From Longimicrobiales bacterium (GTDB taxonomy: Bacteria > Gemmatimonadota > Gemmatimonadetes > Longimicrobiales > Gaopeijiaceae): a stretch of 12,640 nucleotides of DNA. A program made the translations under genes and the position numbers. Below, one piece after another: positions 1,534 to 6,363 of the stretch. Every line of letters begins with the position of its first letter. Position 1 is the stretch's first letter. The notes under the pieces are model-generated. The model did not search any database, had not been told where the DNA came from, and saw only the letters and a list, made by a program, of their open reading frames with translations. The stretch is from positions 1 to 12,640 of the forward strand of contig CBDANQ010000006.1 of assembly GCA_965197725.1 (NCBI GenBank), written 5' to 3'.

Positions 1534-3450
1534 TCACACCACCTTGGCCACACGCAGCACACCGGCTCTCTGCAGAGCTTCGATGTTGACCTTCACGCCG
1601 TCGTCGAGGTCGGGATCCCAGCCATGGGGACGCTCCTCCCCGGCCTTCCACGGCGTGAGAATCCGGTAATCACCTTTCCCGCCCTCCGGGCCGTCGCGGT
1701 ACCCCTCTTGGACTCTCTGGAGGCGTACATCCAACTCCCGAGCCTCTTCGAGTCGTCCCTGCCACTCCTGACGGTCGTCTACCCGTCCAGCCTTGTCGGC
1801 CAGCGCCGCCTCGCGGCGGAATGTTTCCATCGCGTCCCGCACGTACTGCGCCCGGAGTTGCGCCATGCGCTTCTTGTCGAACCGGTGGTAGTGAACCACG
1901 GCGCCGAACGCGAAAGGGGAGGCACCTTGGCTCGATGCAATGTGCCAGAAAATCGGTCGGTTCTTGTAGAGCGAGCAGTGGAACGAAAAGAAGGCACTCT
2001 CCAGCCACGCCGCGATCCCTGTGAAGCGCCGGTAGCCTTTGGCCTTCGTCTTCAGCTCGTTCGCGAGCTCGGCCTCGACGTGCCCCACGTCGAGCTCCGG
2101 AAATAGCGCCTGGAGCTCCCGCTGGACCCGATCGACGAGGCTGGGCTCCCCGGCGACCGGCGCGAACGGCACGATGCCGTCCTCGTCGGCTTCAACTACT
2201 CGCTTGACCGCGTAGGACAGCAGGCGAAACACGTGCTCCATTCGTTTCTGCTCGGGGGTCTTGCCCACCATTTCCGGCCAGATCACCTCTCGCGGACGGT
2301 TGCCGAACTGCTCCTCTATCATGGCGCGCGTCGCCGCCGGAATCCCATACAGTTTGTAGACTTCGTCATTCAACTCAGAGTAGCGCTGCCGGCATTCGTT
2401 CTCCAGCGATCTCTCCTTTACGGTGAGGTGGGCCAGCCGGTTGGCGATCGACCCATGACCTCCGTGATCTTCCATCAATAGCCAGGGCGCGCGAAATGCA
2501 GCCGACACTTCGTTACCAGCATCCCAAGCCGCCTTTGCGTCGTGAATCCCCTTCGCGATGTTCGCCAGCCTCTCCTTATAGTGTGCGGCAAGACGCGGAA
2601 CCGGAATGGATCCTATCGCCGTACCGCCCCAATTTCGCGTCGCTACACACCGGGCAAGCGCGTCGAACAGGGCGCAGTTCATCAGCGCCAAGAAGGCGTC
2701 AATATCCTGACTTTCAGTTGGGAAAAACGTCGGAGAGGCTACGCCGAATACACCTGTCGCAGGCAGCCGTCTCGCGTTCATGCCGAGGATGGTCGTCTGC
2801 ATCCACGTGACCCCTTCGCGGAAATAGTCGCTCTCGGACTTCACGAACCGCGTCGCGCTTCCGTACTTGAGCTTAACGAAATCCTTGAACTCGGCGCCCT
2901 GATCCGTCCAATCGATCACCAAGTCCCAGTCGGTGTAAAACCTGGAGTAGCCACCGCCCTTGGCAAACAGTACCCACCGATGACTCACCTGGGGCGAATC
3001 CACTTCCCATCGCTGACGCGTGAATCGTTCGACTTCTGTCGCATTGAGTCCGTTCCTCGCTATTCCGTACGTCGGAGATAGTGGAGGATGATCGCGAAAT
3101 ATTGGCGCAATCCATGCGATATTTCGGTACACGAGGAGGCTACCCTCGATGAATCCGAAGTCCCGCCGAGCAACGTCATTGCGTATAGAGCGATCCTCTC
3201 CTCTCAAGCTTCGGACGAACATTTCGCAGCGGTGATCCCGCTGATGTCGAGAGCCGCTGAACCGCTCCAGATCGAAGAATGCCGCCTTTTCTCCTTCGGT
3301 GACCACATAGTAGGCCCGTTCCGCCTGTTCGGCCGTGGTGTCGATGCCTTCGCGCGCTTGGGTCGCCTGAAGCGTCGGGATCATGAGCTGCCGACGAAGG
3401 TCCGGGTTGGCGAGGATGCCACGGACGTCGACGCGCCGGCTTCTATCCAT
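1534..3450 (-). CDS. pglX: PglX/BrxX C-terminal half (target-recognition domain + conserved C-terminus) with an N-terminal Fic-antitoxin-like extension
   Basis: 638 aa. PglX-type segments: WVLFAKGGGYSRFY..WDLVIDW..G.EFK, YFREGVTW, LYKNRPIFWHIAS, FGAVVHYHRF and terminal DLDDGVKVNI. No SAM-binding or NPPY motif. ATG overlaps the fic stop by 8 nt (ATGGATAG), with GGAGAGAGG upstream. Confidence 0.85.
   Translation of the reverse strand: MDRSRRVDVRGILANPDLRRQLMIPTLQATQAREGIDTTAEQAERAYYVVTEGEKAAFFDLERFSGSRHQRDHRCEMFVRSLRGEDRSIRNDVARRDFGFIEGSLLVYRNIAWIAPIFRDHPPLSPTYGIARNGLNATEVERFTRQRWEVDSPQVSHRWVLFAKGGGYSRFYTDWDLVIDWTDQGAEFKDFVKLKYGSATRFVKSESDYFREGVTWMQTTILGMNARRLPATGVFGVASPTFFPTESQDIDAFLALMNCALFDALARCVATRNWGGTAIGSIPVPRLAAHYKERLANIAKGIHDAKAAWDAGNEVSAAFRAPWLLMEDHGGHGSIANRLAHLTVKERSLENECRQRYSELNDEVYKLYGIPAATRAMIEEQFGNRPREVIWPEMVGKTPEQKRMEHVFRLLSYAVKRVVEADEDGIVPFAPVAGEPSLVDRVQRELQALFPELDVGHVEAELANELKTKAKGYRRFTGIAAWLESAFFSFHCSLYKNRPIFWHIASSQGASPFAFGAVVHYHRFDKKRMAQLRAQYVRDAMETFRREAALADKAGRVDDRQEWQGRLEEARELDVRLQRVQEGYRDGPEGGKGDYRILTPWKAGEERPHGWDPDLDDGVKVNIEALQRAGVLRVAKVV
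3289..3450 (-). other. Putative FicA/VbhA-like antitoxin domain fused to the PglX C-terminal half
   Basis: Residues 1-54 include RRQLMIPTLQATQAREGIDTTAEQAERAYYVVTEGE. TQAREG (3363-3346) fits the Fic inhibitory motif [S/T]xxxE[G/N] and lies immediately downstream of a fic gene. The motif is short, so the assignment is inferred. Confidence 0.6.
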
Positions 3451-4303: not shown

Positions 4304-6363
4304 CGCGGTCCTCCGCTAAGCACGACAGCGGCTGCTTCGACGGTAGCGTCGTCGAGTATCCCACACCCGAGGTCGAGCATTGCGACTACTGGATTACGCT
4401 TTAGCAGGATCTCGGAGCGAAGGTCTTCGAACGACTTCAAGTTCACGAATGTCGCCGATACCAGCGCGCCGATGTAACCCTCGAATTCCGTTAGCTGAGT
4501 CGCCCGGTCGATGAAGGTCGCATAGATGTCGTTCGCCGTGTGTGGATAGGCCCCTTTCACGAAGTTCCTGACCGTCGGAACGAACGCCCCGTACGGTGGG
4601 TTCATGACCACGACGTCGTACTTGCGGGATAGAAGCTGCAAGAGCTTGAGGCCACGGGCGGTGTCCTCGGCGAAGATCCGATCGCTCGGATCCTCGGTCG
4701 CGCTCACCGCGGCAAACTCGATCGAAGCCAACAGCTCGGCCTTGAGCTGGCGCGCCTGCTCGCGATCCCAGTCGGTGAGGATGCTGTCGGATTCGAGCTG
4801 GCCGTGCTCTCGCCGTTGGGGGAGCTTGGTCAACCCCTTCTCGCGCGCCCTCGCATCGACCCAGTCGTCGAAGACTTGCGCAACGCTTTCCCGCACCTGG
4901 ACGAGGCTGCCGAGCTCGCTTACGTATTGCAGGTTGTCCCACACGACCCTGAAGAGCCGCTCGCGGAGCGGTCCAGTGCCACTCTGGCTGCCGACCCGGT
5001 CGACGAGCGCCCGCAGCCGCTCCGGACCGAGATTGACCGCATTGGCGACTACCAGGTTGGTGGTACGAACACTAACGTCGACCGGCGAGAAGCCGTGCTG
5101 GAGCGCCGCCTCTTTCGCTGTGAGCATCAGCGACAGCGAGGCGATTTGGATCGCGCGCGGGTCGATGTCGATGCCGTAGAGATTGTGCCCCAGGATCGCG
5201 GCCGGGATCTCGCCGGGCTCCTTCACCGAGGGCTCGTCCGGCCAGCCGGCCTCACCCGCGTGCTCGATCTCGTCCACGTACATACGGTAGAATAGTCCAA
5301 AGGCGTACTGACCGAAGTGCATCGTCCCGCACGCGGGATCTAGCAGCGCGATATCTCGGGCACGCTTGAACGACTGCACTTGGCCGGCGTCGTCGAGCCG
5401 CTGGTAGCGAATCCGCTCGCCGGTCCTGGGCACCAGGTAGTCGGCGACAACGAGGTTGGGCGGACGCTCATCGGGCAGAGGCGGCGGAGCTTTTGCCTTC
5501 AGCGCAGAGCTCGGGTGCATTTGCAGCCACAGCCGCCCGAGCGTATTGTCGACCAGTGCTTTGACTACCCACGACGGGGTGTAGAACTGATTGATGACTG
5601 CGAGTTCGTACGATGACCGTGGCGTGCCTTTGTTCTCCTCGCGGACCCGTCTCTTCTCCTCGCGGTTGAAGAACTGGTAGACCCAGCCGAGAAAATCGCG
5701 AGCTCGATAGGCGTCCCCTGGCAAATCATCGTTGATCAAACGGATGACGCGCATGAGCGTGCCGTGGGTCGGCCATACGCACGCGTAGTCGTGATCCGGA
5801 TCGAAGAGGACGCCAATCTCGCCCGTGATGTGTCGGAAAGCCGCGGTAAGCGCGTCCCTGAACAGTGCCTCCTCCGCGTCGGCATCGTACTTGTAGCGGT
5901 TTCCACCTGCAGCACGGAAGTCGCGCAGGTAGCGCGAGTAGTCCTGGCCGGGCACCGGCGTGAGCATCTCGGTCTGCTCGGGGGGCGCGTTTGGCGCGCC
6001 CGGCGGCCTCAGGTAGAGGAGCGCGCGGGCCTCCATGGCCTTCAGCCCGACGAGACGGTTGAGCAAGGTGTACGCAAGTTCCCGCCTCACGTTGTCGAAG
6101 CCACGTTCCGCAGTTCCCTCTGCGATGCCGTCCCGGGCGAGGAGTGCTTCGACGCGTTCCCGCGTCCGGACCGCCTTCTCACGGAGCTGCATGCTGTGGA
6201 TCGGCGTGTGATCTCCGTTGGGCCTAAGCCCCAGCCGGTCGAGCTGAGCCGCGAACTCGTCCTCCAGCACACGACGGACCTTCGGCACCCAGGCCTTCAC
6301 GGCCTCCTTGTGCTGGTCCGTCAGCGTCTCGTGCAAGGCACCATCGTGAGGTCTCGTGCTCAT
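4300..6363 (-). CDS. pglX: PglX/BrxX N-terminal half: N6-adenine DNA methyltransferase catalytic domain
   Basis: 687 aa with AYTLLNRLVGLKAME, LGWVYQFFN, QFYTPSWVVKALVDNTLGRLW, motif I DPACG (5340-5326), NLYGIDID and motif IV VMNPPY (NPPY 4602-4591). Ends just after LG.GILDDATVEAAAVVL, with no target-recognition domain. Confidence 0.9.
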   Translation of the reverse strand: MSTRPHDGALHETLTDQHKEAVKAWVPKVRRVLEDEFAAQLDRLGLRPNGDHTPIHSMQLREKAVRTRERVEALLARDGIAEGTAERGFDNVRRELAYTLLNRLVGLKAMEARALLYLRPPGAPNAPPEQTEMLTPVPGQDYSRYLRDFRAAGGNRYKYDADAEEALFRDALTAAFRHITGEIGVLFDPDHDYACVWPTHGTLMRVIRLINDDLPGDAYRARDFLGWVYQFFNREEKRRVREENKGTPRSSYELAVINQFYTPSWVVKALVDNTLGRLWLQMHPSSALKAKAPPPLPDERPPNLVVADYLVPRTGERIRYQRLDDAGQVQSFKRARDIALLDPACGTMHFGQYAFGLFYRMYVDEIEHAGEAGWPDEPSVKEPGEIPAAILGHNLYGIDIDPRAIQIASLSLMLTAKEAALQHGFSPVDVSVRTTNLVVANAVNLGPERLRALVDRVGSQSGTGPLRERLFRVVWDNLQYVSELGSLVQVRESVAQVFDDWVDARAREKGLTKLPQRREHGQLESDSILTDWDREQARQLKAELLASIEFAAVSATEDPSDRIFAEDTARGLKLLQLLSRKYDVVVMNPPYGAFVPTVRNFVKGAYPHTANDIYATFIDRATQLTEFEGYIGALVSATFVNLKSFEDLRSEILLKRNPVVAMLDLGCGILDDATVEAAAVVLSGGPR

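Follow-up and report, generated by a model that had tools for sequence, protein, structure and literature searches.

The window analysed here is a stretch of 12,640 bases that forms an entire contig (C6) of a 3.0-Mb metagenome-assembled genome of a Longimicrobiales bacterium (65% G+C, 61 contigs, 88.9% complete). Its minus strand carries the gene for PglX, the methyltransferase and specificity subunit of the bacteriophage exclusion (BREX) system, as two separate reading frames with a gene for a Fic protein (fic) between them. This split layout is a conserved subtype of type 1 BREX and not a knockout. It is fairly probable that the specificity subunit of this subtype tethers the Fic protein via a fused module resembling a Fic inhibitory helix, and that it thereby probably silences it. 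The features on which the argument turns are as follows.

6363-4300, minus strand: pglX-N, 687 residues, a helical bundle and a gamma-class N6-adenine methyltransferase core
4303-3443, minus strand: fic, 286 residues, a Fic/DOC protein
3450-1534, minus strand: pglX-C, 638 residues
3286-3450, minus strand: insert-derived module, pglX-C residues 1-55, made up of three short helices that unsplit PglX does not have
3346-3363, minus strand: TQAREG, pglX-C residues 30-35, fitting the Fic inhibitory-helix motif (S/T)xxxE(G/N)
3644-3670, minus strand: HPFREGNGR, Fic active-site motif, residues 212-220, followed by T-A-F

The split gene and its insert

An initial annotation of the window had described three intact minus-strand open reading frames (ORFs) at these positions, with the catalytic motifs of PglX in the first and the target recognition domain (TRD) and C-terminal half in the last. 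The ORF calls and translations, which contain no internal stops, confirm this. The DPACG motif occupies residues 342-346 of pglX-N (window 5326-5340) and the NPPY motif residues 588-591 (window 4591-4602). The PADLOC PglX profile PDLC02527 (1332 positions) divides cleanly, with positions 144-659 falling on pglX-N and positions 652-1207 on pglX-C. pglX-N matches Pfam Eco57I at 71 bits and the PglX/BrxX sequences 8C45, 8ZEK and 9EWZ of the Protein Data Bank (PDB), and pglX-C matches residues 723-875 and 1012-1142 of 8C45. The features of the PglX family, namely methyltransferase motifs I and NPPY, the TRD and the C-terminal region, are therefore all present, shared across two ORFs with fic between them instead of standing on a single polypeptide.

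Both junctions are overlaps. At the first, cgcgATGAgtcg, the pglX-N stop codon TGA (4302-4300) overlaps the fic start codon ATG (4303-4301) as ATGA, and GGAGGA stands 5 nucleotides (nt) 5' of the fic start codon. At the second, GGAGAGAGGcccATGGATAG, the pglX-C start codon ATG (3450-3448) overlaps the fic stop codon TAG (3445-3443); the overlap is ATGGATAG, with GGAGAGAGG just before it. The initial annotation was right about these overlaps, but its statement that fic fills the gap exactly has to be amended, because the first 55 codons of pglX-C are also part of the insert.

The extent of the insert is seen from the closest unsplit PglX (P0283, 1278 residues), which is 60% identical to pglX-N. 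Residues 1-684 of pglX-N align to residues 1-697 of P0283, and residues 56-638 of pglX-C to residues 706-1277. Since the alignment resumes only at residue 56, pglX-C residues 1-55 belong to the insert, which consists of fic and the 55 codons with which pglX-C opens. In P0283 a loop stretch of about 8 residues stands where the split form has the last 3 residues of pglX-N, the fic product and the 55 residues of pglX-C. The break had been placed after VEAAAVVL (pglX-N residues 675-682), with the fold resuming at AAFFDL; this placement is correct, and no core segment of P0283 is missing there. The strand-like AYYVVTE of pglX-C was considered as completing the methyltransferase beta-sheet and was ruled out by the same alignment, residues 1-55 being all insert.

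On the basis of its sequence matches, the break maps to approximately residue 610 of the Salmonella PglX structure 8C45, within the N-terminal domain and before the hinge, reported as residues 654-659 (PMC11341690). Therefore, pglX-C supplies the last stretch of the N-terminal (methyltransferase) domain, and its order is module, end of this domain, TRD, spacer helices and C-terminal region. The AlphaFold2 (AF2) model of pglX-C has a mean predicted local distance difference test (pLDDT) value of 83.

The layout recurs widely. A genome search with the Fic protein alone as query, at one genome per species, gives 17 loci, which span at least seven phyla and include Competibacteraceae, Chromatiaceae, Actinomycetes, Thermoleophilia, Acidobacteriota, Desulfomonilaceae, Puniceicoccaceae and Myxococcales. 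pglX-C is downstream of fic in 17 of 17, and pglX-N is directly upstream of fic in all 16 that have upstream DNA. In 13 of these 16, pglX-N and fic share 4 nt at the stop and start codons, and the fic stop and the pglX-C start overlap by 8-14 nt in 13 of the 17; one locus has a 4-nt spacer. In three of the 17, additional genes separate fic from pglX-C, the gaps measuring 3217, 3151 and 712 nt.

The surroundings in relatives are those of type 1 BREX, the pglX-N / fic / pglX-C order lying inside brxA-brxB-brxC-...-pglZ-brxL. Eight loci with long flanks have the same ORF sizes (approximately 268, 180, 1245, 700, 286, 635, 860 and 684 residues); among them, L010 is cut before the last ORF (brxL) and L015 has additional genes. 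In L007, PADLOC identifies BrxA, BrxB, BrxC, PglX, a PDC-S04/SoFic-like Fic, PglX, PglZ and BrxL, and all six BREX genes are thus present.

A metagenome scan, seeded with a narrower alignment (A5), kept 80 loci holding the module from 229 relatives; the broad alignment of free module homologues (A4) has no conserved stretch of 7-10 columns. In 45 of the 80 a Fic gene is present (adjacent in 44, 2.6 kb away in one). Another 4 contain pglX-C alone and have little or no DNA upstream of it, and the remainder consist of 27 small standalone ORFs and 4 of medium size. The order recurs in each of the 17 genome loci and in 45 of the 80 kept from metagenomes and, together with the conserved overlaps, bears out the earlier suggestion of an evolved, translationally coupled three-gene unit as opposed to a random knockout.

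The cassette is not a fixed property of its clade. In a maximum-likelihood tree of the N-terminal halves (25 rows), the unsplit forms P0283, P0284 and P0285 nest within the split clade (12 rows, support 100/100). Therefore, the cassette has been gained or lost more than once. A protein of 1440 residues (P0282), in which Eco57I, Fic and part of pglX-C are joined, was considered as a natural fusion and rejected, as it contains out-of-frame read-through stretches; it is likely to be a frameshifted assembly or pseudogene artefact.

Some of the relatives carry further genes in or near the operon. The gap in L010 holds a protein of 900 residues (10723-13425) that matches the PADLOC candidate-defence models PDC-M28B/C, and the gap in L013, between 6164 and 9316, is of similar size. 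In L015, an ORF of 139 residues between fic and pglX-C (10980-11399) has no PADLOC match, and a PDC-M38A/B (AbiL/ATPase-like) pair lies between pglX-C and pglZ (13644-15613). The slot in the PglX operon accepts further genes. The complete BREX-Fic locus of L016 is in a defence island context, with a PifA/QatA-like ATPase upstream (168-2351) and a DarT-like protein downstream (17500-18975).

The Fic protein, the module and its free homologues

The fic product matches Pfam Fic/DOC (PF02661) at 44.5 bits, against a cut-off of 24, and the PADLOC candidate PDC-S04 (PDLC04839) at 93.4 bits, residues 86-272 aligning to positions 19-200 of 205; its relative from L007 matches PDC-S04 at 111.6 bits. The best PDB sequence match is VbhT (E 1.6e-7). 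The VbhT model is also the top NCBIfam model, at 35 bits, which is far under its cut-off, and SoFic models match weakly (34.7 bits in PADLOC, 18 bits in NCBIfam). The Fic fold with its beta-hairpin flap is found in the AF2 model, which has a high-confidence core and strands at 154-159, and Foldseek relates this model with probability 1.00 to FICD, the Bep proteins, VbhT and EcFicT. An extra N-terminal region, approximately residues 1-95, is conserved and matches no known fold; an ESM Atlas search with residues 1-98 gave 0.85 with few shared features and is uninformative.

The subfamily is tight. There are 791 database relatives, the best 120 of which are mostly 284-288 residues long and 64-76% identical; across phyla the identity is 57-76%. 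HPFREGNGR is present in 116 of the best 120. The AMPylation signature is given as HxFx(D/E)GNGRxxR (PMC3667792). In the segment HPFREGNGRTAF the first nine signature positions fit it, and the second arginine is replaced by Phe223, so that the full signature is not present. The protein has no (S/T)xxxE(G/N) motif of its own, and any such motif occurs in 2 of the best 120 relatives, not at a conserved position. By these sequence features, it fits class I, which has no intrinsic inhibitory helix.

In class I Fic proteins the antitoxin supplies in trans the helix that bears (S/T)xxxE(G/N), the inhibitory-helix motif (PMC3667792). In the trio, TQAREG in the module is the sole occurrence of this motif in pglX-N, Fic and pglX-C. 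Its glutamate (E34) is found in 17 of 17 sequences and T30 in 16 of 17; position 35 is G or N in all 17, and R33 is invariant. The module lies outside both the PglX profile match and the P0283 alignment, and is nevertheless the best-conserved part of pglX-C, with a mean column identity of 77% over residues 1-50 (17 sequences), compared with 65% for the whole of pglX-C (25 sequences). In the AlphaFold model its helices span residues 9-14, 16-33 and 40-55 and are followed by a low-confidence linker to the body of the protein. The class I feature of a small separate antitoxin beside the toxin is not found here, the module being the N-terminus of the 638-residue pglX-C.

Fic, represented by an alignment of 39 sequences, was modelled in complex with pglX-C residues 1-62, represented by an alignment of 17, in three runs alongside three controls. 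The Fic-module ipSAE values are 0.92, 0.93 and 0.92, and those of the controls are 0.00, 0.01 and 0.00; in a test of the mark used for this score, 116 of 157 solved complexes attained it, as did 2 of 215 mismatched pairs. The partner pLDDT is at least 82, and at least 94% of the contacts are common to the runs. The predicted interface is formed by module residues 25-38, which include the motif, with Fic residues 217, 219-220, 223-224 and 227 at the signature loop, and it also takes in the Fic helix 102-121. In the complex model T30 contacts R220, F223 and I224 of Fic. The module is thus predicted to dock on the active-site face of Fic, as VbhA does on VbhT.

Homologues of the module also occur free of PglX. 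A module profile run against 1.84 billion cluster representatives gives 345 matches at E ≤ 0.001 and 184 at E ≤ 1e-10. Among the best 150 of the 345, 19 are pglX-C or fragments of it, 95 are proteins of at most 100 residues and 36 are longer proteins of other kinds. The small homologues have the core xQAREGI with the invariant glutamate. In 12 free homologues Pfam gives sub-threshold chance matches only, and the source names of 10 are 'hypothetical protein' or absent. Free homologues of 50-90 residues occur in phage contigs. In IMG/VR, 25 of 29 loci encode standalone proteins of 53-75 residues, three are BREX-type fusions and one lies inside an ORF of 2524 residues. A PHROGs scan covered 65 of the 130 ORFs called in 10 IMG/VR loci; most ORFs have no match, and the neighbours that were identified are as follows.

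L113: large terminase, integrase and phage RNA polymerase
L110: helicase
L117: exonuclease
L120, 2156-3325: RtcB-type RNA ligase (PHROG, 457 bits)
L133: integrase

The RtcB-type ligase gene is linked to the repair of tRNA damage. The 2524-residue ORF (L108:1869-9443) has no Pfam domain and may be a polyvalent phage protein or a protein of another mobile genetic element. A metagenome protein of 299 residues (P0157) carries the module at its C-terminus (242-289) and has weak Pfam matches to zinc metallopeptidases of the HExxH type (E 0.003-0.2); it could be an inhibitor of Fic or a protease aimed at it. Pfam finds nothing in other longer module-bearing proteins.

The BREX relic in the window

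The BREX system of the window itself is a relic in which only the trio is intact. The whole assembly was searched with the BREX proteins of L003 and L007 (tblastn), and the remains of the other genes are the following.

6371-6541, minus strand: brxC remnant, the last approximately 58 residues of the approximately 1245-residue BrxC, 67% identical to L003 BrxC 1186-1243
1258-1533, minus strand: brxL fragment 1, BrxL residues 241-332, 84-89% identity by tblastn
950-1273, minus strand: brxL fragment 2, BrxL 577-684, the Lon-like C-terminus, 78-86% identity by tblastn
919-6842: extent of the BREX remnant island

The first brxL fragment, which matches Pfam BrxL_ATPase and PADLOC BrxL positions 241-325 of 680, begins right after the stop codon of pglX-C, pglZ and the first 240 brxL codons being gone; BrxL residues 333-576 are deleted between the two fragments. 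With the proteins of relatives as queries, BrxA, BrxB and PglZ have no match anywhere in the 3.0-Mb, 88.9% complete assembly. The six-gene set of type 1 BREX is therefore not present in the window. A Pfam PglZ match on contig C56 (47729-49303; L001:799-2373) was considered as the BREX PglZ and rejected, as it belongs to a 525-residue protein with a DUF4263/SduA-like N-terminus. Methylation by the PglX halves is unlikely in this bacterium, because the rest of BREX is deleted and PglX alone is reported to be inactive (PMC11341690).

This Fic is found in none of 40 related genomes, which contain only distant Fic proteins of 27-34% identity. Therefore, the island was acquired horizontally. The surviving genes show no visible degradation at the sequence level: the window Fic differs from its relatives at 3 of 115 columns that are at least 90% conserved in them (median 4), and pglX-C at 7 of 191 such columns (median 8). 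A scan of window positions 900-7000 for promoters and terminators stays at chance level, with no promoter-like site above it.

Contigs assembled from runs of three studies, which indicate presence only, hold the stretch at an identity of at least 99% and bridge every junction. The junctions on which the initial annotation depended are thus reproduced in independent assemblies, as listed below.

Position 1534: bridged by X7 record 21
3443-3450: bridged by X1 record 3 and X3 record 14
Position 4300: bridged by X1 record 4 and X3 record 16
brxC remnant to the upstream gene: bridged by X3 record 19

Two further alleles are seen in these contigs. In one, an in-frame deletion of 243 nt in fic (3744-3986, approximately residues 107-186) joins 3743 to 3987; it occurs in X3 (depth 18, the shorter side being 30 letters) and in X7 record 23 (depth 2). 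In the other, which is free of the island, an X1 contig joins 918 to 6843 via 27 other letters at a depth of 11.4, compared with approximately 24 for the island. Contigs of the RNA-library run X12, 95-99% alike, span 4921-6400 of pglX-N; their source is a related strain, and they are no evidence of transcription in the window. One X12 contig joins 6400 to 6774, skipping 373 nt, and this related strain is without the brxC remnant and the spacer upstream of pglX-N.

The remnant is flanked by an unrelated ORF upstream (6826-7920) and a GH32-like gene downstream. The GmrSD/DUF262 N-terminal domain at 8228-9083 of the plus strand (Pfam, 55 bits) is broken over two frames, 8228-8803 and 8670-9083; next to the BREX relic, it represents another defence gene in decay. 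On the minus strand, 9490-12638 encodes an ABC-2 permease, an ABC ATPase and a MerR-family regulator; the PADLOC matches of this region to mads/AriA models probably reflect generic ATPase and helix-turn-helix similarity.

Proposed mechanism, alternatives and significance

The explanation preferred here is that a two-part cassette, fic and the 55-codon module, occupies a surface loop of PglX close to where its methyltransferase domain ends. Three translationally coupled genes are the outcome, encoding the catalytic half PglX-N, Fic, and the DNA-recognition half PglX-C led by the module. PglX-C would tether Fic to the BREX methyltransferase and keep it inactive. Fic would then be a latent second-line effector, freed upon a disturbance of PglX, as might be caused by an anti-BREX protein of a phage such as a DNA mimic binding the PglX C-terminal domain, and the freed Fic would abort the infection. 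Phages may answer with free copies of the module as anti-Fic decoys. The specificity subunit of BREX would thus double as a Fic antitoxin, in a three-layer arms race within one operon. The release of Fic on attack and the counter-defence by free modules are plausible, yet these two steps are to be taken as tentative.

In the window, deletions took brxA, brxB and pglZ completely, together with the greater part of brxC and of brxL, and spared the trio, either because the trio is hard to lose piecemeal or because the deletions are recent. The relic fits a toxin-antitoxin logic, since one deletion stops at the stop codon of the antitoxin-bearing gene and the next decay hits the core of the toxin; it is a single case, and recency explains it equally.

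Several observations weigh against tethering and silencing of Fic by PglX-C. At position 223, F is found in 36 of 39 family members and R in none. The inhibitory glutamate is reported to compete with the ATP gamma-phosphate for the second signature arginine (PMC3667792). As this arginine, the normal partner of the glutamate, is F223 here, the chemistry of the Fic protein and the roles of E34 and of the invariant R33 may differ from the textbook case. Solved complexes of the VbhT-VbhA type exist, and the high ipSAE values may reflect likeness to them and not binding. For the first 80 residues of pglX-C, Pfam gives sub-threshold chance matches only, NCBIfam gives nothing for the module, and the module profile retrieves neither VbhA nor FicA among PDB sequences, the best match being a serine hydrolase (E 0.029). 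No neighbour with a Fic motif is found at 14 standalone module loci, and the free homologues are on this account not classical antitoxins; that they are anti-Fic decoys in phages is a guess as to their role. The searches by tblastn of 72,556 plasmids with Fic and of 50,697 GenBank phage records with a free homologue have no match. The relic state of BREX in the window counts in the same direction, and the trio is dispensable in this population, because alleles with the fic deletion and without the island circulate. Moreover, we infer the toxicity of Fic, its inhibition and the binding of the module.

Three other explanations have to be considered. The cassette may be a selfish addiction module, in which fic and its inhibitor, inserted in pglX, stabilise the island and take no part in phage defence; loss of the antitoxin-bearing PglX-C would kill or arrest the cell. 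This explanation would account for the facts that the cassette stands as an insertion when compared with unsplit PglX and that it comes and goes, unsplit forms nesting in the split clade. It would also account for the window, where the trio alone outlasted three deletions, one of which ends at the pglX-C stop codon, and where the first further decay to appear in the population removes part of the toxin gene in frame. However, the Fic subfamily is seen in this context only, in 17 of 17 genome loci, its identity of 57-76% across phyla and its coupling to both halves exceed the needs of a hitch-hiker, and phage contigs carry diverse free homologues of the module, which points to an arms race. Addiction without a role in defence is considered unlikely, although addiction and defence can both hold.

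It is still less probable that Fic is a regulatory or structural subunit, that is, not a toxin but an adaptor bridging the PglX halves or an enzyme modifying a BREX or phage protein. The module would then be a docking domain, perhaps an activator that gives the invariant Arg33 to a site without the second arginine. The non-canonical F223 in the signature, the invariance of R33 beside E34, the conserved N-terminal region (1-95) without a known fold and the strict embedding of fic between the PglX halves are all consistent with this. On the other hand, the motif matches the inhibitory consensus, glutamate included, the nearest characterised relatives are toxins (VbhT, and SoFic in defence), the phage-borne free modules fit inhibitors better than activators, and unsplit relatives of the same clade do without Fic. 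The remaining explanation, that nothing in the window is functional and the trio is merely the part of a decaying, horizontally acquired BREX island that is not yet broken, is very improbable. It draws on the absence of brxA, brxB and pglZ and the fragmentation of brxC and brxL, the finding of this Fic in 0 of 40 related genomes, the co-occurrence of empty-site and fic-deletion alleles, the reported inactivity of PglX alone (PMC11341690) and the lack of a promoter-like site above chance. Against it stand approximately 4.8 kb of intact frame without excess substitutions at conserved sites, and a deletion boundary that respects the pglX-C stop. Moreover, it concerns the window only and not the conserved family, and is compatible with the tethering of Fic by PglX-C.

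Comparison with known systems places the trio between several of them. The single-chain PglX/BrxX proteins of BREX (Salmonella 8C45/8Q56; E. coli 9EWZ/8ZEK) belong to the same methyltransferase family and have the same domain order. In contrast, there are two proteins here, with the fic gene and the 55-residue module at the break, and five partner genes do not work in the window. [quoted passage not shown] In the class I Fic pairs (VbhT-VbhA, 3SHG/3ZCB; EcFicT-EcFicA, 5JFF), likewise, a toxin with HPFREGNGR lacks its own helix and the motif is in the partner, and docking on the active-site face is predicted here also. The known inhibitors, however, are small, free and encoded upstream, whereas the module is fused to a 638-residue subunit encoded downstream; the Fic protein here is also without the second signature arginine and has the extra N-terminal region. 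SoFic is an anti-phage toxin neutralised by AS1, a short protein encoded downstream (PMC12249575), and is assigned to class II, with its own inhibitory helix (PMC3667792). Both it and the present protein contain a Fic domain and have a partner, predicted in the present case, encoded downstream, but SoFic stands alone.

A parallel in arrangement is found in the anticodon nuclease PrrC and the restriction enzyme EcoprrI, in which an effector gene is embedded among modification-based defence genes. PrrC is kept inactive by physical association with EcoprrI and is released when a phage inhibits the host system. Here the effector would be a Fic protein and not a nuclease, the tether would be an inhibitory-like module on the specificity subunit, and activation by phage is hypothetical. 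The latency of PrrC, held by EcoprrI as a type Ic restriction enzyme, is cited in bioRxiv 10.1101/2024.01.29.577857, a preprint that draws its PDC families from genes lying within BREX, DISARM and type I restriction-modification systems. The window Fic belongs with such embedded accessory genes ('guilt by embedding', PDC candidates; BrxU) through its match to PDC-S04, the profiles of which have approximately 205 positions and cover Fic residues 86-272 only. The main text of that preprint does not mention Fic, PglX or an inhibitor-PglX-C fusion, and its supplements may list the Fic family. The main text of a 2026 Nucleic Acids Research (NAR) survey of BREX diversity likewise mentions no Fic, split or AMPylation. 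In a literature search, no paper joining BREX and AMPylation was found, and none of those retrieved describes the present arrangement, although one concerns a Fic gene in a type I restriction-modification locus. Nor was there one on a PglX-C that bears a fused inhibitor module or on free homologues of this module in phages; supplements of papers may list the Fic family.

The findings bear on how BREX stops phages and on the way in which accessory genes are connected to the systems that embed them. The window is an evolutionary snapshot in which a toxin/antitoxin-like core has outlived the rest of a BREX system. If the proposed explanation is true, the free homologues would make up a new and diverse family of small proteins of phages, candidates for the inhibition of Fic-based immunity, and the split PglX would be a natural example of this protein working in two pieces with the cut in a defined loop, which would be useful for specificity engineering. 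It would also explain in physical terms how a defence based on methylation can be guarded by a latent toxin of its own.

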